This document shows, one piece after another, positions 1 to 46,124 of a DNA stretch of 46,124 nt. The translations under genes were made by a program, and so were the position numbers. Position 1 is the first letter of the stretch, and each line of letters begins with the position of its first letter. The notes beneath the pieces were generated by a model. The model was not told the origin of the DNA. It saw only the letters and a program-made list of their open reading frames with translations, and ran no database searches. This stretch comes from a virus (taxonomy: Duplodnaviria > Heunggongvirae > Uroviricota > Caudoviricetes), in the IMG/VR virus record IMGVR_UViG_2547132255_000002; one strand, 5' to 3'.

Positions 1-1284
1 CTACTTCTTCGCCTCTGCAACCACTTTGCTACCCACGCCGCGGTTATTGTATTCCCACATGCGGTTGTAGTTAGTGTCATTCAGATTGCGCTGTACTTCG
101 TCGTTATCATCAACGCTGCCGGTGTTACCCGCAAATGGACGATTAGAGATCACCGCATCAGCCCACGGTTTGGCTGTGTTAAAACCTTCGTTGATGGCGC
201 TATCACGGATCACTACCTGACCGTTGGTATTGGCATCAACATCCAGCGAGCGGCCCAGTTGCGCCACGCCATCACCGGAAGCATTGAAACGGCTGTTTAC
301 GGCGAGGAAACCGTAGTAAATGTTGGACAGCGTAGCCGGTGCAAACACATACGCTTCTTGCTGGGTACGGGAGTTCACCACGCGGAATTCGGTGTTATCG
401 AACACCACTGCGCCGCGACCAGAAACGATATCCACATCCCCTTCAATATAGCTGTTGGTCACCAGCGTACGCGGCTGACGATTCGTTTCCAGACGGTTCT
501 GCACACCGCTGTTGGTGACAAAGAAGGTGTTCTGACGACCGAGAATGTTGACGTTATTGATCTGCACTTTGTCGCCATCAGTACGCAGTGCCACCGCCGG
601 ATGGTTACCCGCATCTACGCTATCGCCCAGCGTGTTTTCGATGGTCAGGTTTTGCAGTTGCAGGCCATTGTTTTGTGACCAGAAGACCGCAGAGCAGAGA
701 ACACCGATACTGTCGCTGCGTTTACTCTGGCAGCTATCGTACATATACCACGCCGGTTTACCTGGCATATATTTGCCGCGCGGGTTGACGTCGTGACGCC
801 AGTCGGCAGGGCTCATGCCACCATCAAGGGAAAGCCCAATCTTCACATCAATCGGTTTTTCACCCGTACCGTACAGAGTAATTCCACCCGGAGCGGCAGG
901 GACATACACCGTTCCCTGATACTCACCAGGCATCACGGCAATATACTGGCGCTTGTTGGTACGCTTGATAATTGCCGCATCTACCGCCGCCTGAATCGTG
1001 GTATGCGTTACACCTTGAGTACCCGCCGGGCCGACAACAAAGTCAGGTTGCGCAGGCAGGGTAATCGGGGAAGGATTCCACGCTGCCGCACCTGGTGTCA
1101 GGGATGCAAAATAGTGTTGAGCATCGAAATTCTGCGCTTCTTTTGCCGACAGAATCGGGCGCGAAGAGGTACCAGGCGCGGTTTGATCAGAAGGACGTTG
1201 ATCGGGCGGTGTTGAGCTACAGGCGGTCAGCGTCACGCCAAAAGCCAATGCCAGCGCCAGACGGGAAACTGAAAATGTGTTCAC
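1..1284 (-). CDS. ybhC: Host outer-membrane lipoprotein YbhC (pectinesterase-family), flanking lambda attB
   Basis: 427-aa ORF with lipoprotein signal (LTACSS); lies immediately outside the attL core; name rests on recalled ybhC-attB-ybhB neighbourhood. Confidence 0.7.
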   Translation of the reverse strand: MNTFSVSRLALALAFGVTLTACSSTPPDQRPSDQTAPGTSSRPILSAKEAQNFDAQHYFASLTPGAAAWNPSPITLPAQPDFVVGPAGTQGVTHTTIQAAVDAAIIKRTNKRQYIAVMPGEYQGTVYVPAAPGGITLYGTGEKPIDVKIGLSLDGGMSPADWRHDVNPRGKYMPGKPAWYMYDSCQSKRSDSIGVLCSAVFWSQNNGLQLQNLTIENTLGDSVDAGNHPAVALRTDGDKVQINNVNILGRQNTFFVTNSGVQNRLETNRQPRTLVTNSYIEGDVDIVSGRGAVVFDNTEFRVVNSRTQQEAYVFAPATLSNIYYGFLAVNSRFNASGDGVAQLGRSLDVDANTNGQVVIRDSAINEGFNTAKPWADAVISNRPFAGNTGSVDDNDEVQRNLNDTNYNRMWEYNNRGVGSKVVAEAKK

Positions 1285-1330
1285 AGGTTGCTCCGGGCTA
1301 TGAAATAGAAAAATGAATCCGTTGAAGCCT

Positions 1331-1345
1331 GCTTTTTTATACTAA
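1331..1345. other. attL common core (B-O-P' junction)
   Basis: GCTTTTTTATACTAA preceded by host sequence gaagcctg and followed by the lambda P' arm (gttggcattataaaaaagcattgcttatcaatttgttgcaacgaacaggtcactat). Confidence 0.9.
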
Positions 1346-1418
1346 GTTGGCATTATAAAAAAGCATTGCTTATCAATTTGTTGCAACGAACAGGTCACTA
1401 TCAGTCAAAATAAAATCA
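1346..1418. promoter_or_regulatory. attP P' arm (Int arm-type and IHF binding region)
   Basis: Matches recalled lambda P' arm sequence up to the int stop codon. Confidence 0.75.
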
Positions 1419-2489
1419 TTATTTGATTTCAATTTTGTCCCACTCCCTGCCTCTGTCATCACGATACTGTGATGCCATGGTGTCCGACTTATGCCCGAGA
1501 AGATGTTGAGCAAACTTATCGCTTATCTGCTTCTCATAGAGTCTTGCAGACAAACTGCGCAACTCGTGAAAGGTTGGCGGATCCCCTTCGAAGGAAAGAC
1601 CTGATGCTTTTCGTGCGCGCATAAAATACCTTGATACTGTGCCGGATGAAAGCGGTTCACGACGAGTAGATGCAATTATGGTTTCTCCGCCAAGAATCTC
1701 TTTGCATTTATCAAGTGTTTCCTTCATTGATATCCCGAGAGCATCAACATGCAATGCTGTTGGGATGGCAATTTTTACGCCTGTTTTGCTTTGCTCGACA
1801 TAAAGATATCCATCTACGATATCAGACCACTTCATTTCGCATAAATCACCAACTCGTTGCCCGGTAACAACAGCCAGTTCCATTGCAAGTCTTAGCCAAT
1901 ATGGTGATGATTCTGCTGCTTGATAAATTTTCAGGTATTCGTCAGCCGTAAGTCTTGATCTCCTTACCTCTGATTTTGCTGCGCGAGTGGCAGCGACCGG
2001 GTTTGTTGTTATATGGCCTTCAGCTATTGCCTCTCGGAATGCATCGCTCAGTGTTGATCTGATTAACTTGGCTGACGCAGCCTTGCCCTCGTCTATGTAT
2101 CCATTGAGCATTGCCGCAATTTCTTTTGTGGTGATGTCTTCAAGTGGAGCATCAGGCAGACCCCTCCTTATTGCTTTAATTTTGCTCATGTAATTTATGA
2201 GAGTCTTCTGCTTGATTCCTCTGCTGGCGAGGATTTTTTCGTAGCGATCAAGCCATGAATGTAACGTAACAGAATTATCACTGTTGATTCTCGCTGTCAG
2301 AGGCTTGTGTTTGTGTCCTGAAAATAACTCAATGTTGGCCTGTATAGCTTCAGTGATTGCGATTCGCCTGTCTCGGCCTAATCCAAACTCTTTACCCGTC
2401 CTTGGGTCCCTGTAGCAGTAATATCCATTGTTTCTTATATAAAGGTTAGGGGGTAAATCCCGGCGCTCATGACTTCGCCTTCTTCCCAT
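1419..2489 (-). CDS. int: Tyrosine integrase, lambda Int
   Basis: 356-aa product MGRRRSHERRDLPPNLYIRNNGYYCYRDPRTGKEF... matches recalled lambda Int over its full length. Confidence 0.97.
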   Translation of the reverse strand: MGRRRSHERRDLPPNLYIRNNGYYCYRDPRTGKEFGLGRDRRIAITEAIQANIELFSGHKHKPLTARINSDNSVTLHSWLDRYEKILASRGIKQKTLINYMSKIKAIRRGLPDAPLEDITTKEIAAMLNGYIDEGKAASAKLIRSTLSDAFREAIAEGHITTNPVAATRAAKSEVRRSRLTADEYLKIYQAAESSPYWLRLAMELAVVTGQRVGDLCEMKWSDIVDGYLYVEQSKTGVKIAIPTALHVDALGISMKETLDKCKEILGGETIIASTRREPLSSGTVSRYFMRARKASGLSFEGDPPTFHELRSLSARLYEKQISDKFAQHLLGHKSDTMASQYRDDRGREWDKIEIK

Positions 2490-2685
2490 TTCTGATCCTC
2501 TTCAAAAGGCTACCTGTTACTGGTCGATTTAAGTCAACCTTTACCGCTGATTCGTGGAACAGATACTCTCTTCCATCCTTAACCGGAGGAGGGAATATCC
2601 TGCACTCGCGTACCCATCGACGAACTGTTTCAAGGCTTCTTGGGCGTCGCTGGCGTGCGTTCCACTCCTGAAGTGTCAAGTACAT
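2467..2685 (-). CDS. xis: Excisionase, lambda Xis
   Basis: 72-aa product MYLTLQEWNARQRRPRSLETVRRWVRECRIFPPP... matches lambda Xis; overlaps int start as in lambda. Confidence 0.95.
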   Translation of the reverse strand: MYLTLQEWNARQRRPRSLETVRRWVRECRIFPPPVKDGREYLFHESAVKVDLNRPVTGSLLKRIRNGKKAKS

Positions 2686-2903
2686 CGCAAAGTCTCCGCA
2701 ATTACACGCAAGAAAAAACCGCCATCAGGCGGCTTGGTGTTCTTTCAGTTCTTCAATTCGAATATTGGTTACGTCTGCATGTGCTATCTGCGCCCACAGC
2801 ATCCAGTGGTCATAGCAGTCATTGATGTTCTCTGCTTCGATAACTCTGTTGAATGGTTCTCCATTCCATTCACCTGTGACTCGGAAGTGCATTTATCATC
2901 TCC

Positions 2904-2930
2904 ATAAAACAAAACTCGCCGTAGCGAGTT
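2904..2930 (-). terminator. Putative intrinsic terminator on the leftward (pL) transcript upstream of xis
   Basis: Hairpin AACTCGC-cgta-GCGAGTT followed on the minus strand by a U-run (TTTTGTTTTAT). Confidence 0.45.
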
Positions 2931-2964
2931 CAGATAAAAGAAATCCCCGCGAGTGCGAGGATTG

Positions 2965-3249
2965 TTATTCATTGCCGATATTCACCTTTATCGCGAACAC
3001 CTTTACCGGTTTATCACCGAAGTGGGGATGTGTGATTGTCTTGATTTCATATCCGTCATACGGGACGTCAATTCTGCGGCTGGAATCGTCGCGCTTCGGA
3101 TATCCCTTTGTGATAATCAGGCGGTCATACTCGCGGAACATAATTCGCTTATTCCAGTAGTCATTACACAGGCGATACTCTTCCGTTTTCTCTCCGCGAA
3201 TCATGGCATCGAAGTATTCACCTTTAACGGCAAGTTGCAGGTTAGCCAC
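2965..3249 (-). CDS. Hypothetical protein, possible ASCH/PUA-like fold
   Basis: 94-aa ORF; N-terminus LAVKGEYFDAMIRGEKTEEYR resembles the ASCH beta-barrel start motif; recalled similarity only. Confidence 0.45.
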   Translation of the reverse strand: MANLQLAVKGEYFDAMIRGEKTEEYRLCNDYWNKRIMFREYDRLIITKGYPKRDDSSRRIDVPYDGYEIKTITHPHFGDKPVKVFAIKVNIGNE

Positions 3250-3303
3250 GACCTTCCTCCTTTGGCTTGTGAATTTGTATCGTCATGCCGCTTTGAGTGG
3301 TGA

Positions 3304-3528
3304 CTACAACGACAGAACCAGGCTGAAGACTGTTAAGATTGAATGCTTCGTAAAACGAATCCAAGGCCAGCGCTTTTTATTCTTTCGGTTCCACCAACGC
3401 CATCCCTTGCTACAGGCTACACTGACAATCCACTGTCCACTCCTGTAAGCCATATAAAACCAGATGAGCAAAACCTGAAGGAAGGCTATCCAGTCAATAA
3501 TCGTATATTTCGCGAAGGAGTCCATCAC
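3304..3528 (-). CDS. Small hydrophobic (membrane) protein
   Basis: 74-aa ORF whose ATG overlaps the stop of the upstream gene (ATGA coupling); hydrophobic stretch IIDWIAFLQVLLIWFYMAY. Confidence 0.4.
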   Translation of the reverse strand: MMDSFAKYTIIDWIAFLQVLLIWFYMAYRSGQWIVSVACSKGWRWWNRKNKKRWPWIRFTKHSILTVFSLVLSL

Positions 3529-4421
3529 TTCACCTCCTGCTGCGGTGCTGCTGGCATTTCACGCCAGTGCGTAACTGAGTGCGGATCCGGATATTCGGTG
3601 CCATCATCCCAGCGATTGCCATTCCACATTGCAGACCACATCTCACCGTCTTCATACATGACCATTACCGGAATTAACTTATCCGGCATTCGCTCACTAC
3701 AGCTTATCCAACCATCCGGAGTTACCGGATAGTTGCCAGCCAGTCTACGCAAAACAGCCTTAACCGCCTCAATACGGTCATCATCGCAATTTTCCAGCGT
3801 ATCTATGCGGTCGAGCATGATGATGGCGTTATCAATATCAGGATTGCCGGTCCACTCATTACTGCGATTGGATTCGGCAGCCTGGTTGCCAGATGCTGGT
3901 TGATTGTCGGCTTGGCTATAGCTAACAGCACGGCAGGCATCCTCTACGCCTTTAACTGCATCTGCGCAGTAGTTATAGCGATTGCATTCCACTAACTTCT
4001 GCTTGAGATTTTCAATTGCTTGCGCGACATCAGCCTGTATTACCGGCGCTGGCGGAGTGGTATATAGTTTTCGGCATTTGTTTATCCAACCGGCATGGTC
4101 AGGCGTGTCTGTAAAGCGCAAATCGTCTTCGTAGCCCTCACGACTACGTTCTTTCCATTCCGTCCACGGAACACCGCTATTCCAGGTGGGGCGAGTGCAG
4201 GACTGATACAGAACAGGCTCTGATTCCAGCGATGCCAGCACAATTCGTGCCAGCTCACGCACAACTTCAGGGGGCGCGTGACGGTCATTCAGGTCATCCC
4301 ACAGCCGTAGCATGTTATCGCTATCAGGGTTAACATCCTCGTTAGTTCCGGCCAGCGCACTAATAACCTCATCGGCTGCTTCAATAATTTTCTGTGCCTG
4401 TTCTCTGGTAATAGTGGTCAT
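3525..4421 (-). CDS. Hypothetical phage protein with DUF551-like C-terminal domain
   Basis: 298-aa ORF; C-terminal segment (DGWISCSERMPD...VTHWREMP) resembles the DUF551 domain common in lambdoid early-left regions. Confidence 0.55.
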   Translation of the reverse strand: MTTITREQAQKIIEAADEVISALAGTNEDVNPDSDNMLRLWDDLNDRHAPPEVVRELARIVLASLESEPVLYQSCTRPTWNSGVPWTEWKERSREGYEDDLRFTDTPDHAGWINKCRKLYTTPPAPVIQADVAQAIENLKQKLVECNRYNYCADAVKGVEDACRAVSYSQADNQPASGNQAAESNRSNEWTGNPDIDNAIIMLDRIDTLENCDDDRIEAVKAVLRRLAGNYPVTPDGWISCSERMPDKLIPVMVMYEDGEMWSAMWNGNRWDDGTEYPDPHSVTHWREMPAAPQQEVK

Positions 4422-4422
4422 A

Positions 4423-5139
4423 TCACTCTCCTTTCCCCTGAAGCATGGCGTTGCTCCGCTCTATACCATCCAGCGCGATTCGCAGTGCCTGAATTGTGGT
4501 AATGCTATCGTTTGGGGCTATTCCATATCGCTCGAATACAGCGATATGACCGCGCATAATCTCAGGCGTAAGCTCTTTGTAAGCATAAGCAAGAGACTCT
4601 GATGCATTATCCGGCACTACTGGCGATGGCTGTTTAGCTTCTAAATCAGCAATTCTGTCAACCACGGCATCGACAGCATCTGAAAAGCCGAACCAGTTGC
4701 TCCACTCAGGCCTATCCCCGGTTGCTGCAAAATACATATCAGCTAAAGCAGACTCAGCATGGTCACGCTCGTTGATGAGTTGCTCTTCGCTTTTCTCCAG
4801 TTCAGCAATACGCTTACTTCCATCCGCGATTACTCCCTCGTAATACTCGCGTTGCTCGTTGAGTTTTGATTTTGCTTCCTCAAGCTCAACACGCAGCTTC
4901 CCTACCGTTAGCGCAATATCCTCGTTCTCCTGGTCACGGCGTTTGATGTATTGCTGGTTTCTTTCCCGTTCATCCAGAAGCGCCAGCACAATGTGTGGCG
5001 TTATTAAGGACTCAAATTCGGCAACAGCTTGCTCACCTCGCTTGTAATTCTTAATCCCACCTAAATCTTTCGCGTTCTGTGCCGCCTCACGCAGTGCCTG
5101 GTAATTAATTTCGCTCACTGGTTGCCTCCTTTGCGCCAC
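4423..5139 (-). CDS. Hypothetical coiled-coil protein (Ea22-like position)
   Basis: 238-aa ORF, charged coiled-coil-like middle; placement between xis and recombination genes. Confidence 0.5.
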
Positions 5140-5300
5140 ATCGCATTCAGATATTTGTTTTGATTCACGGACGGAAAAGAATTTCTCTTAAGCAATTCCT
5201 CTCTCGATGGCATTGGCTTTACGCGTTGGCGAATAATCATTTCTGCCGGAAGAATGCCGGGATTGTATGCAAGTCCTCTCATGGTAAATTCCTCAGTCAT
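5115..5300 (-). CDS. Hypothetical small protein
   Basis: Internal ATG ([10 protein letters not shown]...) of the 5115-5435 ORF placed right at the stop of the upstream gene; weak. Confidence 0.3.
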
Positions 5301-5589
5301 TACTGATAGCGCCATAGCGTGAGCGGTAATTACGCAGGCGCGGGTCGATATATTCAGGGAAGTGGGTATATGTGGCTTTGCGGAATGGTCGGATTGATGT
5401 CTGGTAAATTCGCTCGCGTTCTTCTTTCTCTGCAAGCCATATACAGTGGCGAGATTCCTTTTCCTCTTTCGTTTCCTGCGGTAGAGACATTATTCGATCG
5501 TAGTTTTTTCTGAATTTATCCAGCACCTCCGATACGGAATTGCCGGAACAGCGGCGCGCGTCATCCGCACCATACAGAGGCGCTGGCAT
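5293..5589 (-). CDS. Hypothetical protein
   Basis: 98-aa ORF in the leftward operon, 16 nt downstream of the exonuclease gene. Confidence 0.45.
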
Positions 5590-5605
5590 GGTTTTCTCCT
5601 GTTGA

Positions 5606-6154
5606 TTATTTAGCTAACTTTTTCCAGATCGCTGAAACGTATTTGGCTTGGTGAATGGCATCATCAAGCGCGTTGTGGCGAGTTCCTTTGAATGGCATAT
5701 CTCGCTTAGGGTCGAATCCTATTACCTTCCCAAGTTCGACGATTGTTCTTACGTCTCGGTCATTCCACCACTGCCACGGAACTGGCTGCCCTGTCAGCGA
5801 ATAACTGTTGCGGAGAATAACGCAGTCAAATGATGCTCCATTCCCCCAAACCTGAACGAATTTGTGGTTAGCGTTCTTTATGATGAATTCAGATAACCAT
5901 GAAAGAGCCGTTGAAAGCTCCTGAGTGTTGCTGGTTAGCGATTTTCTGGCTTCTTCACTCTGTTCCAGCCACCATAAAATCGTTGAAGCGTCAGGACGCG
6001 CCCGATATCGCATTGATGACTCAAGCGAGATATTTACCGAGAACTCTTCTCCTGTTTCTCCGGTATTCGGGTCAAAGAATACTGCCCCAATAGAAATAAC
6101 TGGCGCGTATGGCCCGTTGCCCATTGTTTCAAGGTCAACCATCAAGTGATTCAT
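5606..6154 (-). CDS. DEDDh-type 3'-5' exonuclease (DnaQ-like)
   Basis: 182 aa; Exo I motif MVDLETMG near the N-terminus and Exo III motif HNALDDA near the C-terminus; RBS aagga upstream. Confidence 0.7.
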   Translation of the reverse strand: MNHLMVDLETMGNGPYAPVISIGAVFFDPNTGETGEEFSVNISLESSMRYRARPDASTILWWLEQSEEARKSLTSNTQELSTALSWLSEFIIKNANHKFVQVWGNGASFDCVILRNSYSLTGQPVPWQWWNDRDVRTIVELGKVIGFDPKRDMPFKGTRHNALDDAIHQAKYVSAIWKKLAK

Positions 6155-6162
6155 GTAAGTCC

Positions 6163-6669
6163 TTAAATTGCGTGAATAGCGTGACGAGGGAAGGGGAGAG
6201 TTACTGGTGCAAAGGGTATATCGTCGTCAAAATCCATCGGAGGTTCGTTGTGTTGTGCTGGTGATGATTGCTGCTGTGGCTTCTGTGATTGCCTGCTGGC
6301 TGCTTGTTGTTTGCTGTCGCCAATGCCGCCAAGCATTTGCATCACGCCATTAATTCCGACATGAACCTCGGTTGTGTAACGGTCTTGTCCTGACTGGTCT
6401 TTCCACTTTCTGGTTCTCAGCATTCCCTCGAAATAAATCTGATCACCTTTTTTCACATACTGCCCCACGACCTCAGCCAGTTTCCCGGATACAGCAACAC
6501 GATGCCATTCAGTCAATTCCTTTTGCTCGCCAGTATTTTTATCTCGCCATTGTTCTGACGTGGCTATTGTCAGGTTAGCGAACGCTGTTCCTGATGGTGA
6601 GTATCGAACTTCCGGGTCTTGTCCTACCCGACCAAGGATAATCACCTTATTTACGCCTCTGCTTGCCAT
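6163..6669 (-). CDS. ssb: Single-stranded DNA-binding protein with C-terminal extension after DDDIPF
   Basis: [23 protein letters not shown]... OB-fold core closely matches E. coli SSB; acidic tip DFDDDIPF present but followed by 15 more codons. Confidence 0.9.
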
Positions 6670-7377
6670 TTATGCCGCCTGTTTTAGTTCGTTAACTCTG
6701 ATGTTCATTACCTGAACGCATTTAGCCTGCGCATCCTCATTGCCAGCCATTAATTGCCAGTCATGCTGATAACGTTCTATGAGTTTTTTCTTGTCAGTTT
6801 CTGTCGAAGCATAATCACTGAAGTCTTTCAGGATTTGTTCGCAGTCAACCGATGGAGATTTCTGGTTGGTATTTTCTGGTGATGGTTGATTGCCAGATGC
6901 TGGCATTGCCCATCCCGGCAGCGATGGAGGGGACCAGTAAAATCCTGTTCCATCTTTCAGTTTTGCCCTGTGCCATCCCTGCTTTTTATCGAGAGATGTT
7001 TGTGCGAAACCTTCCTCAAGGTTATACAGATACCGACCGATTCCCCACTGAACGGCAGCACGCTTCATTGCACCGGAACGACCACCTTTGACGGCTTCTA
7101 CCTGCGTGTTTTCAGCAGCATCCCATTTGGTTACCCATTCGGAATCAATCTTGATTGATATGCCGCATTCAACTCCGCCGTTGTTGGGAATATCGCGGTA
7201 TTCATTGCGCCATCCTGCTTTGCCGCAAACATCGTCCAGGCGTTTCATGATTGCCCTGTTCGTGACATAAGCCAGCACCATAGCCCACACCTTGCCATCG
7301 CGTGTTTTACCGCTTTGCTGTATTCGCCATTCGATATCTTCAGGGCTGAATGGCTCATCGAATTTGTTCAAATCCAT
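6670..7377 (-). CDS. Rad52-like single-strand annealing protein (Sak-type recombinase)
   Basis: 235-aa ORF directly upstream of ssb and exonuclease; strong RBS (gaggtg); family assignment from recalled Rad52/22-type prophage proteins. Confidence 0.6.
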   Translation of the reverse strand: MDLNKFDEPFSPEDIEWRIQQSGKTRDGKVWAMVLAYVTNRAIMKRLDDVCGKAGWRNEYRDIPNNGGVECGISIKIDSEWVTKWDAAENTQVEAVKGGRSGAMKRAAVQWGIGRYLYNLEEGFAQTSLDKKQGWHRAKLKDGTGFYWSPPSLPGWAMPASGNQPSPENTNQKSPSVDCEQILKDFSDYASTETDKKKLIERYQHDWQLMAGNEDAQAKCVQVMNIRVNELKQAA

Positions 7378-7476
7378 AATTCACCTCAGAATGGACACGG
7401 CCCAAGGAAATAACGCTGATTTAATACTTCGACTCGGGACAAATTAAGGCATACCCGCATTCCTTCGCGGTCGCCA

Positions 7477-7635
7477 TTATGGCGATACCAGAGAGCTTTC
7501 TGCGTGTACATGCGCCTCTGTAACTTGCTCTCCTTCACTGTGGTTGCAAGTGACATGAATATCTCCTTCGTTGCCGATTAATTCTTTCATCTGACGAATG
7601 AATTCTTCGTCTGACCAGTTATCTGTAAAACTCAT
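7477..7635 (-). CDS. Small protein translationally coupled to cIII (Kil-equivalent position)
   Basis: 52-aa ORF MSFTDNWSDEEFIRQMKEL...; its ATG overlaps the cIII stop (ATGA). Confidence 0.4.
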   Translation of the reverse strand: MSFTDNWSDEEFIRQMKELIGNEGDIHVTCNHSEGEQVTEAHVHAESSLVSP

Positions 7636-7802
7636 GGACGGCCTTGTTGTTTCAAAATATCCCAAAGCTTTTCGAGCAAGCTTTTCATTCTTGGTTGTTT
7701 AAAGTCTGCTCCGGTTAAAATATTTTTTCGTGAATGCTGTACCGATAAAATCGGGTTGAAAGGGCGAACCGATGCCACCCCTGCAATAGCGAACTGTTGC
7801 AT
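7632..7802 (-). CDS. cIII: cIII-like inhibitor of FtsH
   Basis: 56-aa MQQFAIAGVAS...MKSLLEKLWDILKQQGRP resembles lambda cIII (MQYAIAG...SLLERITRKLRDGWKRLIDILNQPG); GGAG RBS. Confidence 0.65.
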   Translation of the reverse strand: MQQFAIAGVASVRPFNPILSVQHSRKNILTGADFKQPRMKSLLEKLWDILKQQGRP

Positions 7803-7860
7803 AGGATGCTCCTTCTGTTTGATTGCATAACGAAAACGCCTCGAGTGAAGCGTTATTGGT

Positions 7861-7890
7861 ATGCATATAAAAAGGCCCTCACACTGGAGG
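7861..7890 (-). terminator. Putative intrinsic terminator in the pL operon (tL1-like)
   Basis: On minus strand: GCCCTC-cagtgt-GAGGGC followed by CTTTTTAT. Confidence 0.5.
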
Positions 7891-8026
7891 GCAAAGAAGA
7901 TTTCCAATAATCAGAACAAGTCGGCTCCTGTTTGGTTACGAGCGACATTGCTCCGTGTATTCACTCGTTGGAATGAATACACAGTGCAGTGTTTATTCTG
8001 TTGTTTATGCCAAAAATAAAGGACGA

Positions 8027-9369: not shown

Positions 9370-10029
9370 TTAACTAAATGTCTCTTCAGGCCACTGGCTG
9401 GCGATAACTTTCCCTACTACGGAACAGCTATCATTGCATGGAATCATTGGATATTGCGGGTTTAGTGGCTGTAGGAACACCTGACCGCTATCCCTGATCA
9501 GTTTCTTGAAGGTAAACTCGTCACCACCAAGTCTGGCTATGCAGAAATCACCTGGCTCAACAGCCTGCTCGGGGTCAACGAGAATTAACATCCCGTCAGG
9601 AAAGCTTGGCTTCGATCCTGTTGGCGCGGTCATGGAATTACCTTCAACTTCAAGCCAAAACGCACAATCACTGGCTTTTTTGGTTGTGCTGACCCATCTC
9701 TCCGCATCACCTTTGGTAAAGGTTCTAAGCTCAGGCGAGAACATCCCTGCCTGAACATGAGAAAAAACAGGGTACTCATATTGTTTTTTAACGGGGGCAG
9801 ATGAGTATTCGCCAACAGGTGAAAATGTACCGTCGTGGTTGAATGAGACGTTATCAATACCAAGGTATTTAAACACCACACCAATCTCGTCAAGAGATGG
9901 ATGACGAGATCCGCGCAACCAGTGACCAATTCCACCCTGCGTCATACCAAGCTCTTCAGCTAACTTCTCTTGAGTTATGCCGAGCTCTTTCATTCTGGAT
10001 CTAGCCAGTTCATACCATTTCATTTTCAT
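9370..10029 (-). CDS. cI: CI repressor, chimeric: foreign HTH N-terminal domain plus lambda-type S24 C-terminal domain
   Basis: From [39 protein letters not shown] to the end matches lambda cI; N-terminal ~95 aa ([33 protein letters not shown]...) does not. Confidence 0.9.
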
Positions 10030-10084
10030 ACCCTTATTATTACGCTCTGTACTAAAACCATCCATGCACAAGATGTATTTTTAT

Positions 10085-10113
10085 TTGCATTCTAAAAGTA
10101 CATATCGTATTAT
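10085..10113 (+). promoter_or_regulatory. pR promoter (-35 TTGCAT, 17-bp spacer, -10 TATTAT)
   Basis: Consensus-like hexamers 27-55 bp upstream of the cro start; the spacer contains the oR palindrome. Confidence 0.6.
10097..10111. promoter_or_regulatory. Operator-like palindrome in oR
   Basis: AGTACATATCGTATT, reverse complement near-identical to the oL site. Confidence 0.55.
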
Positions 10114-10139
10114 TGCTTCATGGTTACTATGGAGGGCAT

Positions 10140-10355
10140 ATGAGCAACCTACGAAAATATCGAGAGTCACTGAATATCTCTCAAACAACACTTGCTAAGG
10201 CAGTTGGATGCACACAGGGAGCTATCGGACATTGGGAATCTGGTCGTCGCTTCCCAGACCTTAAAACATGCCGTGCTCTTGTTGAGTGCCTAAACAAGTT
10301 AGGCGCAAAAGTCAGTCTTGATGACGTGTTCCCGCCGGAACACAAAGCCGCTTAA
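10140..10355 (+). CDS. cro: Cro-like HTH repressor (XRE family, non-lambda)
   Basis: 71 aa MSNLRKYRESLNISQTTLAKAVGCTQGAIGHWESG...; RBS GGAGGG; divergent from cI. Confidence 0.8.
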   Translation: MSNLRKYRESLNISQTTLAKAVGCTQGAIGHWESGRRFPDLKTCRALVECLNKLGAKVSLDDVFPPEHKAA

Positions 10356-10395: not shown

Positions 10396-10473
10396 ATCAA
10401 TTAAACCACACCTATGGTGTATGCATTTATTTGCATACATTCAATCAATTGTTATCTAAGGAAATACTTACAT

Positions 10474-10767
10474 ATGGTTCGTGCAAACAAACGCAACGAG
10501 GCTCTACGAATCGAGAGTGCGTTGCTTAACAAAATCGCAATGCTTGGAACTGAGAAGACAGCGGAAGCTGTGGGAGTTGATAAGTCGCAGATCAGCAGGT
10601 GGAAGAGGGACTGGATTCCAAAGTTCTCAATGCTGCTTGCTGTTCTTGAATGGGGTGTCGTTGACGACGACATGGCCCGATTGGCACGACAAGTTGCTTC
10701 GATTCTCACCAATAAAAAACGCCCGGCGGCAACCGAGCGTTCTGATCAAATACAAATGGAATTTTAA
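10474..10767 (+). CDS. cII: Transcriptional activator CII (lambda type)
   Basis: MVRANKRNEALRIESALLNKIAMLGTEKTAEAVGVDKSQISRWKRDWIPKFSMLLAVLEWGVVDDDMARLARQVA... matches lambda CII. Confidence 0.95.
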   Translation: MVRANKRNEALRIESALLNKIAMLGTEKTAEAVGVDKSQISRWKRDWIPKFSMLLAVLEWGVVDDDMARLARQVASILTNKKRPAATERSDQIQMEF

Positions 10768-10789: not shown

Positions 10790-11062
10790 ATGCGAAACAA
10801 AGGCTTTAATCCACCTGATACACACAAAGAAGTTAAGCGTTTGCGCTTCCTTCGTTCCATTGATGAAAGAACTCAAATCTCTTTTGTGAAAGTTGCCAGA
10901 ACTGAGCTTCTGAAGGCTGAGGCGAGGGCGTTGCTCCCGTCTCTACCAAAAGAGGAGGGATATACGTTCATTCCAAACGCATTTCTGGAAAAGCTGCTCA
11001 AAGAAGACATATCCGTAAGTCAGTTTAACGATGTTCTTAAGGTCTTTCGTCAAGGCAGGTAG
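10790..11062 (+). CDS. Hypothetical protein between cII and the replication initiator
   Basis: 90 aa from ATG 10790 (MRNKGFNPPDTHKEVKRLRFL...) with RBS GAGGT; stop 2 nt before the initiator start. Confidence 0.5.
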   Translation: MRNKGFNPPDTHKEVKRLRFLRSIDERTQISFVKVARTELLKAEARALLPSLPKEEGYTFIPNAFLEKLLKEDISVSQFNDVLKVFRQGR

Positions 11063-11064
11063 TT

Positions 11065-12011
11065 ATGAGCAATACAGCAAAAATCTACGATTTCAGCGCC
11101 GCACACGAGCGCAGGAGCAACAGGATGGAGAACCAGAAAACTGGTTACATTCCGTTGTACCGGAGCATTCTGAAACAGTCATGGGCGAAAGATGTTTATC
11201 TTCGCACCCTGTGGGAAAACCTTCTCCTGAATGCCGCCAGAAAGCCATACAAAGCGAATTTCAAAGGTCATGAATGGCATCTGCAACCCGGTCAACTGGT
11301 TGTGACAGCAGCTGATTTAGGTCTTCAGTTATGCGACAGGCATGGCAAGCCGGCAAGCCGTGATCAGGTTGAGCGGATGCTTCAGGTTTTTGTGAAAGAG
11401 GGGATGATCTCCATTGATGGAGAGAAGCAAAAAGGTCGTGTGATCACCATCACAAATTACCATGAATATGCTCAAAAAATGGACGATTCACCCGCACATG
11501 AAGCCGCACAAACAACCGCACATGATGCCGCACATGATGAAGCCAGTAATGGCGCGGCATTCAGCGTACATGCCGCACATGAAAGCGCACATGAAGCCGC
11601 ACAAACAACCGCACATCATGAACAAGAAGGTATTAACAAGAATATAAATAATACCCCCTACCCCCCAATGGGGGAGGCGATGGGCAGGTTAAACCTGAAC
11701 GTCGCAAGGCAGAACGCATCGACTACGAATCCTTCCTGAACGCCTACAACACCGAAGTCGGTGACAGACTTCCACACGCTGTTGCGGTCAACGAGAAACG
11801 CAAACGCCGCCTGAAGAAAATCATCCCGCAACTGAAAACGCCAAACGTGGACGGTTTCAGAGCGTATGTCAGGGCGTTTGTGCATCAGGCCAAGCCGTTT
11901 TACTTCGGAGACAACGACACGGGCTGGACGGCAGATTTTGATTACCTGCTGAGGGAAGATTCGTTAACGGGAGTTCGGGAAGGGAAGTTTGCAGACAGGG
12001 GGATTGCATGA
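11065..12011 (+). pseudogene. Replication initiator (lambda O / P22 gp18-like), frame interrupted by an apparent 1-nt deletion near 11654-11674
   Basis: Frame-1 ORF 11065-11739 carries the N-terminal domain and the iterons; a start-less frame-3 ORF 11652-12011 carries a C-terminal domain ending in ATGA overlap with the helicase start. Confidence 0.6.
11491..11620. repeat. Origin iterons (about six copies of CCGCACATGA) inside the initiator gene, followed by an AT-rich tract
   Basis: Direct repeats at about 11492, 11516, 11528, 11571, 11586, 11609; AT-rich 11621-11653; lambda-ori-like architecture. Confidence 0.75.
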
Positions 12012-13384
12012 AACAGGATATCGAAGCGAGCGTTATCGGTGGCCTGCTGATTGGTGGATTAACACCGACTGCCAGTGACGTTCTGGCAACGCTTGAGCCG
12101 GAAGCGTTTTCAATTCCGCTCTACCGGAAAGCCTTCGAGGTTATCCGCAAGCAGGCGAGAAACAGAAACCTAATCGACGCGCTGATGGTTGCCGAGGCGT
12201 GCGGAGAGGAGCATTTCACGTCAATCCTGATGACCAGCAAAAACTGCCCGAGCGCCGCAAACCTGAAGGGATATGCCGGAATGGTCGCGGATAACTATCA
12301 CCGCCGTCTGGTGCTGGAAATCATGGATGAAATGCGTGAACCAATTCAGAGCGGAACCATCGACACATCGAGTCAGGCGATGGATGAGCTTGTAAAGCGT
12401 CTCTCAGCCATCAGAAAGCCCCGTGACGAGGTTAAACCGGTACGGTTAGGGGAAATCATCACTGACTACACCGACACGCTTGACAGGCGTCTGAGGAACG
12501 GAGAAGAGTCAGATACCCTGAAGACCGGAATCGAAGAACTTGATGCCATCACCGGAGGGATGAACGCAGAAGACCTTGTGATAATCGCTGCTCGTCCTGG
12601 TATGGGGAAAACCGAACTGGCGCTGAAGATTGCCGAAGGTGTTGCAAGCCGCGTTATTCCTGGTTCTGACGTCCGGAGCGGAGTATTGATTTTCTCAATG
12701 GAAATGAGCGCATTGCAGATTGCAGAGCGAAGCATTGCCAACGCCGGGAGGATGTCAGTTAGCGTGCTGCGAAATCCTGCATCGATGGATGACGAAGGCT
12801 GGGCGCGTGTTGCTAACGGCATGAGTCAGCTTGCAGATTTGGATGTGTGGGTAGTCGATGCCTCGCGGTTATCGGTCGAAGAAATTCGCTCAATCGCAGA
12901 ACGGCACAAACAGGAAAATCCAAACCTGTCACTCATCATGGTGGATTATCTTGGCCTGATTGAGAAGCCGAAAGCAGACCGCAACGACCTCGCAATTGCT
13001 CACATCTCCGGAAGCCTGAAGGCGATGGCGAAAGACCTGAAAACGCCTGTTATCTCCCTAAGTCAACTTTCGCGCGATGTTGAGAAGCGACCAAACAAAC
13101 GCCCGACAAACGCAGATTTGCGTGATTCAGGAAGCATTGAACAGGACGCAGACTCAATCATCATGCTCTATCGGGAAGCGGTATATGACGAGAACAGTAG
13201 CGCCGCGCCATTTGCTGAAATCATCGTGACGAAAAACCGTTTTGGCTCGCTTGGTACGGTTTACCAGCGGTTCTGCAACGGACACTTTGTTGCATGTGAC
13301 CAGGATGAAGCCAGACAGATTTGCACAGCATCAAATGCACCTGCTGCACGTGGCAGACGATATGCACAAGGGGCTGACGTATGA
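12008..13384 (+). CDS. Replicative DNA helicase, DnaB-like (P22 gp12-type)
   Basis: 458 aa; Walker A GMGKTE in [13 protein letters not shown] and DnaB-like C-terminal motifs. Confidence 0.9.
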
Positions 13385-14071: not shown

Positions 14072-15018
14072 CGATGACTGCGTATTACAACGAAATAGAT
14101 CCGTATGCAGCGCAATGGCTGCGTAACTTAATTGACGCTGGAGAAATTGCCCCCGGTTATGTAGATGAAAGGAGTATTGAAGATGTCACTCCAGGTGATT
14201 TGCGAGGATTTACCCAGCACCACTTTTTTGCAGGAATCGGAGTTTGGAGCTATGCACTTAGAAAAGCAGGATGGCCAGACAACAAGAGTATCTGGACAGG
14301 AAGTTGCCCATGCCAACCTTTCAGCTCGGCAGGCAAAGGAAAAGGGGTTGATGACGAGCGGCACTTATGGCCGGCATTCTTCTGGCTTATTGAAAAATGC
14401 AATCCTGGCATCGTTATTGGCGAACAGGTTGCAAGCGCAGACGGCCTCGCTTGGCTCGACCTTGTACAAACTGACTTGGAAGGTGCGAACTACACCTCTG
14501 CAGGTACCGATATTTGCGCTGCGGGCTTCGGTTCTCCGCACATTAGGCAGCGATTGTATTGGGTGGCCTACTCCAACGACAAATATCAACTTTCAGCCAG
14601 AGACGCGCAGGGGAATTCAGAACCTATCTGGATGCGTGAGACTAGCGGGATGGCAAACTCCTTTAGCGAACGATGCAACAGGTTCAACGCATTGCTACAG
14701 CGGAAAAGACAAGAGCGGAACCCCAAGAATCTGCTTGAAACTTCCCGGGACGGTGAAGCTATGTACCCATTACCGGTTAACGGCTTCTGGAGAGATGCAG
14801 ACTGGCTTTACTGTAGAGATGAAAAATATCGTCCAGTTAGACCCGGCTCATTCCCGATGGTTAATGGCATTGCCAAAAGCTTGGGACGAGGCAAGTCCAC
14901 ACTGGGAAGAATGGCAAAGCGCAATCAAGATCAGCGAATTATTGGATATGGAAACGCAATCAATGCAGAAGTAGCAACGGCATTCGTGAAAGTTTGTATG
15001 GAGGTTGTTAATGCTTAG
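14068..15018 (+). CDS. DNA (cytosine-5)-methyltransferase, orphan
   Basis: Motif [10 protein letters not shown], catalytic PCQ in [16 protein letters not shown], motif VI-like [13 protein letters not shown]; no adjacent restriction endonuclease. Confidence 0.85.
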
Positions 15019-15449: not shown

Positions 15450-16060
15450 TGGCTAAACCAGCGCGAAGACGATGTAAAAACGATGAATGTCGGGAATGGT
15501 TTCACCCTGCATTCGCTAATCAGTGGTGGTGCTCTCCAGAGTGTGGAACAAAGATAGCACTCGAACGACGAAGCAAACAGCGCAAAAAAGCGGAAAAAGC
15601 AGCAGAGAAGAAACGACGACGAGAGGAGCAGAAACAGAAAGATAAACTGAAGATTCGAAAACTCGCCTTAAAGCCCCGCAGTTACTGGATTAAACAAGCC
15701 CAACAAGCCGTAAACGCCTTCATCAGAGAAAGAGACCGCGACTTACCATGTATCTCGTGCGGAACGCTCACGTCTGCTCAGTGGGATGCCGGACATTACC
15801 GGACAACTGCTGCGGCACCTCAACTCCGATTTGATGAACGCAATATTCACAAGCAATGCGTGGTGTGCAACCAGCACAAAAGCGGAAATCTCGTTCCGTA
15901 TCGCGTCGAACTGATTAGCCGCATCGGGCAGGAAGCAGTAGACGAAATCGAATCAAACCATAACCGCCATCGCTGGACTGTCGAAGAGTGCAAGGCGATC
16001 AAGGAAGAGTACCAACAGAAACTTAAAAAACTGCGAAATAGCAGAAGTGAGGCTGCATGA
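15449..16060 (+). CDS. ninG: NinG (Rap-like recombination protein)
   Basis: 203 aa, N-terminal Cys cluster ([24 protein letters not shown]) and basic linker as in lambda NinG. Confidence 0.85.
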
Positions 16061-16911
16061 CGTTCTCAGTAAAAACCATTCCAGACATGCTCGTTGAAGC
16101 ATATGGAAACCAGACAGAAGTAGCACGCAGACTGAAATGTAGTCGCGTTACGGTCAGAAAATACGTTGATGATAAAGACGGGAAAATGCACGCCATCGTC
16201 AACGACGTTCTCATGGTTCATCGCGGATGGAGTGAAAGAGATGGCTATTACGAAAAAATTGATGGCAGCAAATACCGAAATATTTGGGTAGTTGGCGATC
16301 TGCACGGATGCTACACGAACCTGATGAAAAAACTGGAGACGATAGGATTCGACACCAAAAAAGACCTGCTTATCTCGGTTGGCGATTTGGTTGATCGTGG
16401 TGCAGAGAACGTTGAATGCCTGGAATTAATCACATTCCCCTGGTTCAGAGCTGTACGTGGAAACCATGAGCACATGATGATTGATGGCTTATCAGAGCGT
16501 GGAAACGTCAATCACTGGCTGCTTAATGGCGGTGGCTGGTTCTTTAATCTCGATTACGACAAAGAAATTCTGGCTAAAGCTCTTGCCCATAAAGCAGATG
16601 AACTTCCGTTAATCATCGAGCTGGTGAGCAAAGATAAAAAATATGTCATTTGCCACGCCGATTATCCTTGTAACGAATACGAGTTTGGAAAGCCAGTTGA
16701 TCATCAGCAGGTAATCTGGAACCGCGAACGACTCAGCAACTCACAAGACGGGATCGTGAAAGAAATCAAAGGCGCGGACACGTTCATCTTTGGTCATACG
16801 CCAGCAGTGAAACCACTCAAATTTGCCAACCAGATGTATATCGATACCGGCGCAGTGTTCTGCGGAAACCTCACATTGATTCAGGTACAGGGAGAAGGCG
16901 CGTGGGCATAA
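16057..16911 (+). CDS. ninI: NinH-NinI in-frame fusion ORF (NinI = Ser/Thr protein phosphatase)
   Basis: First ~63 aa match lambda NinH; the remainder ([23 protein letters not shown]...GNHE...) matches the lambda phosphatase; the separate ninI start frame terminates after 17 codons. Confidence 0.8.
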
Positions 16912-29511: not shown

Positions 29512-30056
29512 ATGTTGAGTGAAAACGCAAAAGATATTCCTGGATATGAAGGTTTATATGCCGTAACAGAGGATGGGCGAGTATATTCTCACTCACGTGT
29601 TGTTAAGGCTGCGCATGGCAGCACGCAACTCAGAAAGGGGCGGTGGCTAAAACAACACGAGAATAATAAAGGTTATCTATATTTGCCACTTAGTGTTGAT
29701 GGAGTTAAAGTAAAATGGCTTGTGCATAGGCTTGTCGCTCTTGCTTTCGTCCCCAATCCAGAAGGCAAGCCGTTCATAAATCACATAGATAACAACCGAA
29801 AAATAATAATGCTTCTAATTTAGAGTGGTGTACTCAAAAGGAGAATATGAAGCATTGCTCATCTCAAGGCAGGGTGAAGTTTCCGGCTTTAAAAGGAGAA
29901 AATAATCCAATTTCAAAGCTCTCATATGAGCAAGTAATAGAAATAAAGAAATCAAAGGGAGTTAATCAAAGAGAGCTTGCTAAAAAATACTGTGTCAGTC
30001 AGACGGTGATTCACAATATCCAGTCTGGTAAATCGTGGAGGCATGTTAATGGCTGA
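29512..30056 (+). pseudogene. HNH homing endonuclease (NUMOD4 plus HNH_3), frame broken at an A5 run (29799-29803)
   Basis: Frame 1 gives IPGYEGLYAVTEDGRVYS...FINHIDNNRK then stops; frame 3 continues NNASNLEWCTQKENMKHC...; one extra A would restore HIDNNRKNNNASNLEW. Confidence 0.65.
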
Positions 30057-30897
30057 TTCGAATCTCAACACCCCTGTTATTGTTCAGGCGACGCAGCTCG
30101 ATACATCAATCCTTCCACGCAATATCTTCTCGCAGTCGTATCTGCTTTACGTTATCGCACAGGGTACTGATGTTGGTAACGTGGCGAACAAGGCCAACGA
30201 GGCCGGACAGGGCGCTTATGACGCACAAGTCAGGAACGATGAGCAGGATGTGATTCTCGCTGACCATGAGCAGCGAATTTCTGCTGCGGAAGCAACGCTT
30301 GTTAATCATGAGGAGCGAATCAGCCAGGCAGAATCAACTCTTCAGGAACATGAAACACGAATAGCGCAGAATGAAAGCGATATTGCGTCGCTTGATACCA
30401 GAGTTCAGTCGCTGGAGTCGCAGGTTTCAGACCATGAAACGCGCATTGATGCTCTGGAGTATGCAACCACGCGCAAGAAGTCAGAGGTTGTTTACTCTGG
30501 CGTATCAGTAACCATTCCGACAGCGCCGACCAACCTTGTTAGCCTGCTGAAAACGCTCACGCCGTCATCAGGCTCGTTGGCACCATTCTTCGACACCGTT
30601 AACAACAAGATGGTTGTGTTCAACGAGAACAAAACCCTGCTCTTCAAGTTGTCGATTGTCGGCACGTGGCCCAGCGGAACCTCCAACAGGTCAATGCAGC
30701 TAACCTTTTCCGGCTCTGTTCCTGACACACTGGTAAGCAGTCGCAACTCGGCGACAACAACCGATAACATTCTGTTAGCTACGTTCTTCAGCGTGGATAA
30801 AGACGGCTTTCTTGCCACAAATGGCAGTACGTTAACCATTCAGTCAAATGGTGCGGCGTTTACTGCCACAACCATCAAAATCATTGCGGAGCAGTGA
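30049..30897 (+). CDS. Tail needle (P22 gp26-like) with C-terminal knob
   Basis: [43 protein letters not shown]... matches the P22 gp26 N-terminus; heptad coiled coil; extra ~100-aa C-terminal domain. Confidence 0.85.
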
Positions 30898-31609: not shown

Positions 31610-33563
<1,954 letters not shown>

Positions 33564-33978: not shown

Positions 33979-35361
33979 GTGGCAACTTGGCAACAGAGCA
34001 TCAACTCCGGTGGTTTTCTGGCTGGAATTGGTGCGCAAAATGAGAATGCGCCAAAGGCGAGTGATGTAAATGAGACACTGGCTTACATTCGTCAGAATAA
34101 TGAGGATGCCAGGCTTGGTCGCAACAATATCGGTCTGCAGGCTCTGCAGGGAATAACAAGCACAATGCAAGGATTGCAGCAATATGATCAGCAGAAGCAA
34201 GAGGCAGCATTCAGAAAGGATTATGCTTCTGCTATTCAATCAGGTGATCGACAGCAGGTTCGAGATCTGATGACCAAATATCCTGGTCAATTAGAGAAGA
34301 TTCAGTCTGGTATGAAGTGGGCAGACGAAGACCAGCGCAATTCTATCGGCACCTTAGCGGCTGGCGCACGACTTGCAGCCTCGTCTCCAGAAGCAATGCA
34401 ATCATGGCTGCAAAACAACGCCAAGGAACTGACTCGCGTCGGTGTTGACCCTAATAACGTTGCTCAGATGTATCAGCAGAATCCTTCAGGATTTGGTGAG
34501 TTTGTTGATCACCTTGGAATGTCAGCGCTTGGTCCTAATGATTATTTCAATGTTCAGGACAAGATGGCTGGTCGTGAGATTGACCGAGGCAGGCTGGCAG
34601 AGACAATCCGCAGCAATCAGGCTGGCGAGGCACTTCAGGCGAGAGGGCAAAACCTTTCCTATCAGTCAGCAATGACTGGACACGGACTTGCAGCAGAAAG
34701 ACTGGCACTTGATAAGCAGAAATTCGGTTTTGAAGTACAACAGGCACAAAAGAAGGCCGATGAACTTATTAATGCTGCGCCAAAACTATCCGTGAACATG
34801 GAAAAGGCTATAGAAAAATCAGCAGGTGATGCGGCAGCTAGTCGTAATGCTGCCGATTCAATGACAACGCTTGCTGACACGCTGGAGAAGGAGAAGCCAA
34901 CTCCTGGTTTGTTCGGTAACGCTGAAAATATGTTCACTAAGCTTACGGGGCAAGATAACTACCTCCGAGATATGCGGATTAGATTCAACCAACTAGCCAA
35001 TGCGCAGGCAACCAAGCTTCTCCCTCCCGGCCCTGCATCAGATAAGGATATTGAGTTTGCAAGGAAAGGCATTCCAAGCGAAACGGATAATCCAATGGTC
35101 ATGGCTCGATGGTTAAGGGGTATGGCAAAAATGGAAAGTAATAACGCGAAGTTCAACGAGTTTAGGTCAGAGTGGATGAGTGCAAATGGCAGCCCAGGAC
35201 AATCTGATCGCAACCGAAACATCATGGGGATGGATGTTAAGAAGGGTGAATCATTGAACTCTGCGGCAAAACGTTTTCTTTCCTCAAGTTATGGCGATAG
35301 CCAACCTCAACAGCAATTGTCCGATGACGAATTAATTAGCAAATATCTCGGAGGGCAGTAA
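33979..35361 (+). CDS. Ejection protein (P22 gp20-like)
   Basis: 460 aa from GTG with RBS GGAGGT; synteny and size. Confidence 0.65.
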
Positions 35362-37481: not shown

Positions 37482-37810
37482 TCAATCATCCATGGATGGA
37501 TTGAGCTTATCTCGTGTTGATGTGGCAATTTTCCCAACATTTTTCAACCAAGATTTTAAGAAGGATATGTCGTCCTTAATATCATGAATATCCTCATTCT
37601 TTATACGATCAACCTTATCCTCTAGGCTCTCTATAGAACGCTCAATGCTAGACAGAGAGATTTTTAAGTCTCCTTGCTCACGTTCCAGTGAGGATTTGAG
37701 AGCACAATATTCGTTTTCTAGAATTCCTATTTTTTTGTTAGAGAGTGCATTCGATACTCATACACCAAACCAGAAACGACTAATGCAGCCAACAGAAACC
37801 ATTCAAGCAC
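37482..37810 (-). pseudogene. Small membrane-anchored coiled-coil protein, frame broken at an A7 run
   Basis: Minus strand: RBS AAGGAGG, GTG, TM helix VLEWFLLAALVVSGLVYEY, then stop at the A-run; the next frame continues IGILENEYCALKSSLEREQGDLK... to 37482 with no start of its own. Confidence 0.45.
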
Positions 37811-44408: not shown

Positions 44409-44885
44409 TTAACTAAACATCGCAGTAATCGAGGCACTCGCCAGAGAGTGAAAATGAACGTTAAACCCGACCATCGCGCCGCTGGCACCTTCATCGACAT
44501 CAATACGTTCTACATCCAGCGCGTGAACGGTAAAAATGTAGCGATGGGTTTCGCCTTTCGGCGGCGCTGCGCCATCGTACCCGGTTTTACCAAAGTCGGT
44601 ACGCGTCTGCAAAACGCCGTCTGGCATAGCTACCAGACCAGAGCCAAACCCTTGCGGTAATACGCGGGTATCAGCGGGTAAATTAACAACTACCCAGTGC
44701 CACCAGCCGGAGCCGGTTGGCGCATCCGGGTCATAGCAGGTGACAACAAAACTTTTCGTTCCCGCAGGAACATCATCCCACGCCAGATGCGGTGAAATAT
44801 TATCGCCATCGTAACCCATGCCGTTAAAGACATGACGATGCGGCAGCTTATCGCCATCGCGCAGATCGTTACTGATGAGTTTCAT
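44409..44885 (-). CDS. ybhB: Host PEBP-family protein YbhB
   Basis: 158-aa ORF adjacent to attR on the bio side of lambda attB; PEBP-like motifs (DPDAP, HRY). Confidence 0.75.
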   Translation of the reverse strand: MKLISNDLRDGDKLPHRHVFNGMGYDGDNISPHLAWDDVPAGTKSFVVTCYDPDAPTGSGWWHWVVVNLPADTRVLPQGFGSGLVAMPDGVLQTRTDFGKTGYDGAAPPKGETHRYIFTVHALDVERIDVDEGASGAMVGFNVHFHSLASASITAMFS

Positions 44886-44993: not shown

Positions 44994-46124
44994 ATGAAAC
45001 GCGCATATAAATACCGGTTTTACCCGACAACTGAGCAGGCTGAGCTTTTAGCTCAGACGTTTGGCTGTGTGCGCTTCGTCTACAATTCCATCCTTCGTTG
45101 GCGTACCGATGCGTACTACGAGCGAAAAGAAAAGATCGGTTATCTACAGGCCAACGCTCGCCTTACGGCGCTCAAAAAAGAGCCTGAATACATATGGCTG
45201 AATGATGTTTCCTGCGTTCCCCTCCAGCAGTCGTTGCGCCACCAACAAGCCGCCTTTGCTAACTTCTTTGCCGGACGAGCTGCATATCCGGCTTTCAAAA
45301 GCAAACGGCACAAACAGGTGGCTGAGTTCACTGCCAGCGCGTTTAAACACCGTGACGGCGAGTTGTATATAGCAAAGAGCAAGTCGCCGCTGGATGTTCG
45401 CTGGAGTCGAGAATTACCATCTGCGCCGTCAACCGTTACCATTTCCAGAGATAGCGCTGGCAGGTACTTTGTTTCCTGCCTGTGTGAGTTTGAACCTGTA
45501 TCAATGCCTGTTACCGCTAAAACGGTCGGCATTGATGTGGGCTTAAAAGATTTATTCGTCACCGATACCGGATTCAAAACCGACAATCCCCGCCACACCG
45601 CTAAATATGCGAAGCGATTAACGCTGCTACAGCGACGTTTAAGCAGGAAGCAAAAAGGCTCAAGAAACCGAATTAAAGCCCGCTTAAAGGTCGCCCGACT
45701 CCACGCGAAAATCGCCGATTGCCGGATGGACAATCTGCACAAGTTGTCCCGCAAACTGATTAACGAAAACCAAGTTGTTTGCGTCGAATCCCTCAAGGTG
45801 AAAAACATGATCCGCAACCCGAAGCTGTCTAAAGCAATAGCTGACGCAGGCTGGAGCGAACTTGTTCGCCAGCTCCAGTACAAAGGCAAATGGGCCGGGC
45901 GGTCAGTGGTCGCCATTGACCAGTATTTACCGTCCTCAAAATGCTGTAGTTGCTGCGGTTTCACCATGCAAAAAATGCCTCTTAATGTTCGTAAATGGCA
46001 CTGCCCTGAATGCGGCGCAGACCATGATCGCGACATTAACGCGGCACGTAATATTAAAGCTGCCGGGCTGGCAGTGTTAGCCCACGGAGAGCCTGTAAAC
46101 CCTGAATCGCAGCACGCGGCTTAG
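44994..46124 (+). CDS. tnpB: IS200/IS605-family TnpB (OrfB) RuvC-like nuclease, no adjacent TnpA
   Basis: 376 aa; N-terminus MKRAYKYRFYPTTEQAELL typical of OrfB/TnpB; C-terminal zinc finger CCGFTMQKMPLNVRKWHCPECGADHDRDINAARNI. Confidence 0.8.
   Translation: MKRAYKYRFYPTTEQAELLAQTFGCVRFVYNSILRWRTDAYYERKEKIGYLQANARLTALKKEPEYIWLNDVSCVPLQQSLRHQQAAFANFFAGRAAYPAFKSKRHKQVAEFTASAFKHRDGELYIAKSKSPLDVRWSRELPSAPSTVTISRDSAGRYFVSCLCEFEPVSMPVTAKTVGIDVGLKDLFVTDTGFKTDNPRHTAKYAKRLTLLQRRLSRKQKGSRNRIKARLKVARLHAKIADCRMDNLHKLSRKLINENQVVCVESLKVKNMIRNPKLSKAIADAGWSELVRQLQYKGKWAGRSVVAIDQYLPSSKCCSCCGFTMQKMPLNVRKWHCPECGADHDRDINAARNIKAAGLAVLAHGEPVNPESQHAA

Follow-up and report, generated by a model that had tools for sequence, protein, structure and literature searches.

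The replication initiator gene of the prophage described here appears divided between two reading frames, which raises the question of whether the prophage is replication-defective or whether the break belongs to the assembly. The stretch of DNA analyzed (46,124 nucleotides, hereafter the window) contains a P22-like (Lederbergvirus-type) prophage in a host chromosome of the E. coli type. The flanking genes and the genes around the initiator are:

1-1284, minus strand: ybhC, left flank
9370-10071, minus strand: cI
10113-10355: cro
10414-10767: cII
10791-11062: a 90-aa ORF between cII and the initiator
from 11065, plus strand: the initiator, after the 90-aa ORF
12008-13384, plus strand: DnaB-type replicative helicase gene (458 aa; Pfam DnaB and DnaB_C)
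44409-44885, minus strand: ybhB, right flank

Downstream of the helicase gene lie ninB and the remainder of the nin region.

In the sequence as given, the initiator is read from two open frames:

11065-11739, plus strand: frame 1, with ATG at 11065 and the stop codon at 11737-11739, 224 aa
11652-12011, plus strand: frame 3, open for 120 codons (stop included) and encoding the authentic C-terminal third of the initiator

The first-pass annotation of this DNA, made from the letters alone, had reported these frames with their stops, an ATGA overlap with the helicase gene and three runs of C or G, and all of them are present in the sequence. The frame-3 opening is directly preceded by TAA (11649-11651) and the frame is closed by TGA (12009-12011), which the helicase ATG at 12008 overlaps as ATGA; the earliest start codon possible in this frame is a GTG at 11847. 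The region where the two frames overlap (11652-11739) holds a C5 run at 11654-11658, a C6 run at 11661-11666 and a G5 run at 11670-11674. Residues 1-197 of the frame-1 product are authentic and consist of the Phage_rep_O N-terminal domain and an iteron-encoded linker. From codon 11659 onward its tail, 'YPPMGEAMGRLNLNVARQNASTTNPS', is out-of-frame nonsense resulting from the missing base, and the frame-3 stretch encodes …PLPPNGGGDGQVKPERRKAERIDYESF…GKFADRGIA. It had been predicted that one added base would give an initiator of about 315 aa. Addition of one C to the first C run did give a 948-nt, 315-aa ORF, identical to the protein of the near-identical assembly AEZY02. Only with this C restored does the gene form a single ORF colinear with its family over the full length; the window text as given does not.

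The restored protein was assigned to the lambda O family. Pfam PF04492 (Phage_rep_O) matched residues 20-132 over the full profile (1-95) with 56.8 bits, against a cut-off of 28.7, and the precomputed Pfam result for the identical AEZY02 gene agrees with this assignment. In addition, residues 2-315 matched positions 1-295 of the 297 in phrog_345 ('replication initiation O-like') with E = 7e-100. No relative of the restored initiator was found in the PDB by sequence, and the C-terminal third matched no Pfam family. PGAP-style gene callers start the initiator at Met21, giving 295 aa instead of the 315 aa of the full ORF. PHROG 27581 ('unknown function', profile of 216 aa) also matched residues 1-207 of the restored initiator (E = 1e-102); shortened or mosaic copies of the initiator in phage records may be the source of this family.

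The length of the C run in homologues was determined by megablast of 11065-12011, which matched 121 phage records and 715 E. coli records. The full-length matches among those listed were all 948 nt long, compared with 947 nt in the window. Alignment with four phage or prophage sequences, including JEP4, CUS-3 and an Stx2a phage, revealed a single gap, C5 in the window against C6 in the others, which locates the missing base in the first C run (11654-11658). The suggestion that a single-base change within the cluster of C/G runs had broken the iteron-bearing initiator was therefore correct, one C being missing at that position. An 86-nt query centred on the C run was then searched against complete E. 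coli genomes and phage records. Neither the approximately 276 complete E. coli genomes nor the 55 phage records gave a gap-free full-length match to this C5 query; the best matches were all 87 nt long, with 98.9% identity, and these comparators all have C6 at 11654 and one continuous ORF. An exact look-up of the 224-aa shortened product returned no record in the assembly collection. An exact 46-mer carrying C5 had no match in the GTDB species representatives, a set that is uninformative here, as it holds one genome per species. The 54-aa C-terminal ORF starting at the GTG was looked up as a marker of disrupted initiators and revealed no frameshift at the C run; it gave only short contigs and mosaic variants, in which the junction lies near gene position 574-586 and is accompanied by an in-frame 3-nt insertion.

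The closest known counterparts are the CUS-3 replication protein 'O' (ABQ88421.1), JEP4 (QOC67893.1), Gally and many Stx2a-converting phages, with 98-99% nucleotide identity over 948 nt. Phages of the CUS-3/JEP4 type have the same gene order (cII, a small ORF, the initiator and a DnaB-type helicase with overlapping stop and start), and the iteron block and the cluster of C/G runs are likewise present. They differ from the window in having C6 instead of C5 and by a few substitutions, and after correction of the run no meaningful difference is left. The corrected gene is a routine member of an initiator family widespread in P22-like and Stx-converting phages.

A first audit of the gaps, based on relatives of 94-98% identity, revealed three 6-to-5 contractions in coding DNA that only the window has, at 3374, 11654 and 29799, the other indels being non-coding only. 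That audit could not tell error from mutation and was superseded by a comparison with near-identical assemblies, which were retrieved by exact-protein look-ups. Contig AEZY02000006.1 of GCA_000194475.2 (AEZY02 version 2), another assembly of the same strain, showed no substitutions relative to window positions 5451-46124 (40.7 kb) and shares with it an IS100-like insertion in a gp7-like gene and a 284-aa NinH-phosphatase fusion. The two sequences differ only by four one-base gaps, all in homopolymers of at least six bases, and the window is the shorter at all four:

10073-10077: T run in the cI-cro intergenic region, T5 here, T6 in AEZY02 version 2 and GCA_026357155.1
11654-11658, plus strand: C run in the initiator, the site of the frame break, C5 here, C6 in every comparator
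29799-29803, plus strand: A run in a NUMOD4/HNH gene, A5 here, A6 in AEZY02 version 2 and GCA_031618215.1
37730-37736: T run in non-coding DNA, T7 here, T8 in AEZY02 version 2

In AEZY02 the gene call for the initiator is intact, a Phage_rep_O gene of 295 aa directly adjoining the helicase gene. The run at 29799 is A6 in all 16 complete E. coli genomes that hold that stretch, and T8 at 37730 was also found in Logan SRR387489, Logan SRR25691301 and GCA_031618215.1. Both of these Logan sequences, which are assembled reads and not pile-ups, carry the strain-specific fusion gene and have C6 in the initiator; otherwise, 11,326 bp of SRR387489 and 7,282 bp of SRR25691301 are the same as the window, SRR25691301 being a sister isolate (one SNP at 34791) and not necessarily the same culture. 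On the other hand, the Logan assembly of run SRR066815 has the short A5 at 29799 and agrees with the window at every base over 4,090 bp (100% identity), indicating that the short alleles track the read set rather than the lineage. The version-2 sequence contains 52 runs of six bases, four of seven and one of eight. Shortening in the window affected 3/52, 0/4 and 1/1 of these, respectively; the 482 runs of four or five bases were all unchanged, no run was lengthened and no base was substituted.

These results indicate that the frame break is very probably a homopolymer under-call in this assembly version rather than a feature of the prophage, with C6 as the true state of the run at 11654. Four contractions without any substitution between assemblies of one strain are the signature of homopolymer under-calling and not a pattern of evolution. 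Substitutions outnumber indels about ten-fold in E. coli mutation spectra, and this spectrum, together with the known sequencing error modes, is the basis of the inference. The differences resemble the homopolymer under-calling of flow-based and nanopore assemblies in being contractions only, in runs of at least six bases, free of substitutions and bound to a read set; the rate, 4 of the 57 long runs, is moderate. The first-pass annotation had warned against calling the prophage defective until systematic homopolymer error was excluded, and this caveat proved to be the answer, since version 2 of AEZY02 has C6. Its description of a split initiator is true of the window text but not of the organism, the longer homopolymer being present in version 2 and in two read-based assemblies. 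The restored gene is one 948-nt ORF encoding an ordinary lambda-O-type initiator that is already known, with nothing new about it. Taken at face value, the window would lead to misannotation of the initiator and of the homing-endonuclease gene as pseudogenes and of the prophage as replication-defective, and the operator spacing in the cI-cro region would be mis-measured, any promoter or operator interpretation based on spacing there being off by one. All four discrepancies vanish in the later assembly version.

The isolate could instead truly have C5, that is, carry a loss-of-function frameshift leaving a 224-aa protein without the C-terminal part, in which case the prophage would be unable to initiate replication on induction. 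Homopolymer slippage is the commonest natural route to a frameshift, so the mechanism itself would be the usual one, and the prophage already has real lesions (the IS100-like insertion and the read-supported NinH-phosphatase fusion) as well as a T5 allele in a DUF4752 gene that is common to another assembly. Nevertheless, this would take four independent homopolymer contractions over 40.7 kb, and not one substitution, between two assemblies of a single strain, the remaining data for the lineage are all C6, and the C5 allele occurs in no other genome or phage searched. We therefore consider a genuine frameshift improbable. A variant of this explanation, which we regard as less probable still, is that the short alleles were real in the source DNA: a subculture, perhaps a transient mutator, could have contracted several homopolymers including the C run beside the origin, turning off the C-terminal part and leaving an iteron-binding N-terminal fragment that might act as a replication inhibitor.

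A mixed or phase-variable population, in which C5 and C6 cells coexist and different sequencing runs sample different majorities, would be consistent with the reappearance of A5 at 29799 in SRR066815 and not in the other read sets, but it would require four unlinked runs all to be short in one preparation. Known phase-variable tracts are far longer than the runs of six considered here, and it is not apparent why the four sites, two of them in non-coding DNA, should switch together, which makes this explanation very unlikely. The least tenable is a native two-frame gene expressed by programmed -1 ribosomal frameshifting or by transcriptional slippage on the C runs: the presence of C5, C6 and G5 in the overlap would in principle allow tRNA-Pro slippage, but efficient transcriptional slippage needs longer runs than these, and the intact homologues, comparison with which had been proposed as a check, have C6 and a single ORF, the two-frame arrangement being absent from the approximately 276 E. 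coli genomes, the 55 phage records and the three other assemblies of the lineage, so that it is not native to the gene family and programmed frameshifting is excluded. Programmed frameshifting and phase variation were both rejected, the two-frame state being conserved nowhere.

The other frame breaks in the prophage had been described as all lacking one base at short runs, like that of the initiator. The genes and elements concerned are:

~3241-3528, minus strand: DUF4752 family gene, frameshifted at a T5 run (3374-3378)
16057-16911: NinH-phosphatase fusion, ninH and a Metallophos (NinI-like) phosphatase gene joined in one 284-aa ORF
29512-30057: NUMOD4/HNH homing-endonuclease-like gene, between the gp10 and tail-needle genes
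31610-33563: IS21-family (IS100-like) element of 1,954 bp with 28-nt imperfect terminal inverted repeats
31676-32458, minus strand: istB, 260 aa
32455-33477, minus strand: istA, 340 aa

The description was right for the run at 29799, where the A5 under-call reduces the NUMOD4/HNH gene to 103 aa; in AEZY02 version 2 it encodes 181 aa. Of 5,426 complete E. coli genomes, only 16 have this gene. The description did not apply to the NinH-phosphatase fusion, which was caused by a one-base deletion at about 16243, outside any homopolymer (GATGCGCTAT in relatives, GATGGCTAT here). This fusion is genuine, being shared by AEZY02 version 2 and the two Logan read assemblies, and similar 289-aa fusions have been called in other genomes. 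For the DUF4752 gene, the break is indeed at the T5 run, which is T6 in all 538 complete E. coli genomes holding the stretch, but the left arm of GCA_026357155.1, with one substitution and no gaps over window positions 1-8002, has T5 too. Judged solely from that assembly, the DUF4752 frameshift is probably a real inherited pseudogene and not an error of the kind that had been supposed.

The IS100-like element interrupts the gene for the P22 gp7-like ejection protein, leaving pieces of 93 and 87 aa. The insertion is real, since AEZY02 version 2 has it too and the borders of the element are where the Logan contigs stop, and it probably blocks the formation of infectious particles whatever the state of the initiator. 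The real defects of the prophage therefore lie elsewhere than in the initiator, namely in this insertion and, probably, in the DUF4752 frameshift. In the sister prophage of GCA_026357155.1 the IS100-like insertion is absent and the gp16 region differs; it carries an IS3-family insertion (a 382-aa transposase call) adjoining an Nmad5 gene, at the equivalent of window positions 7996-8002, which is absent from the window.

With the under-call corrected, the initiator gene contains both elements of a lambda-type origin within its coding sequence:

11492-11620, plus strand: putative origin iterons, eight copies of SCGCACA with exact 12-nt spacing
11621-11653, plus strand: putative unwinding element, AT-rich (about 30% G+C), to the right of the iterons and to the left of the C run

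The iterons form two blocks of four (11492-11539 and 11573-11620), corresponding to initiator codons ~143-186, and they account for 8 of the 18 SCGCACA matches in the whole window. The under-called C run lies in the linker, just to the right of the putative unwinding element. In lambda the origin is located within the initiator gene and consists of iterons and an AT-rich stretch. The same arrangement was found here, with the N-terminal domain matching the lambda O family (PF04492) above the curated cut-off, the iterons followed by the AT-rich stretch inside the coding sequence, and the C-terminal part encoded downstream. The two systems differ in the iterons, which are eight, short, spaced by 12 nt and in two blocks here but four of about 19 bp in lambda, and in the downstream partner, which is a DnaB-type helicase here (as P22 gene 12) but the loader P in lambda.

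The ATGA overlap couples translation of the helicase gene to that of the initiator. By analogy with lambda O and its origin and with the P22 gene 18/12 pair, the initiator would bind its own iterons, presumably through its N-terminal domain, and may open the adjacent AT-rich DNA. The gene order and the ATGA coupling suggest that the C-terminal third, the part lost from the 224-aa product, could bring in the DnaB-type phage helicase encoded downstream. If the C run was indeed under-called, the prophage has an intact replication module.

In both short-read Logan assemblies the contig starts at window position 11587, within the array of iterons in the initiator gene. The 12-nt repeats evidently make k-mer assembly collapse at this gene, which leads to truncated initiator fragments at contig ends in public data.

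Two further genes are found in the window. An intact gene for a DNA cytosine methyltransferase (PF00145, 314 aa, 14074-15018) sits in the nin region, in the ninE/ninF interval; a 269-aa alternative-frame ORF (14165-14974) overlaps it and is no sign of a frameshift. Outside the prophage, an IS605-type TnpB gene (OrfB_IS605/Cas12f-like, 376 aa, 44994-46124) adjoins ybhB and reaches the end of the window.
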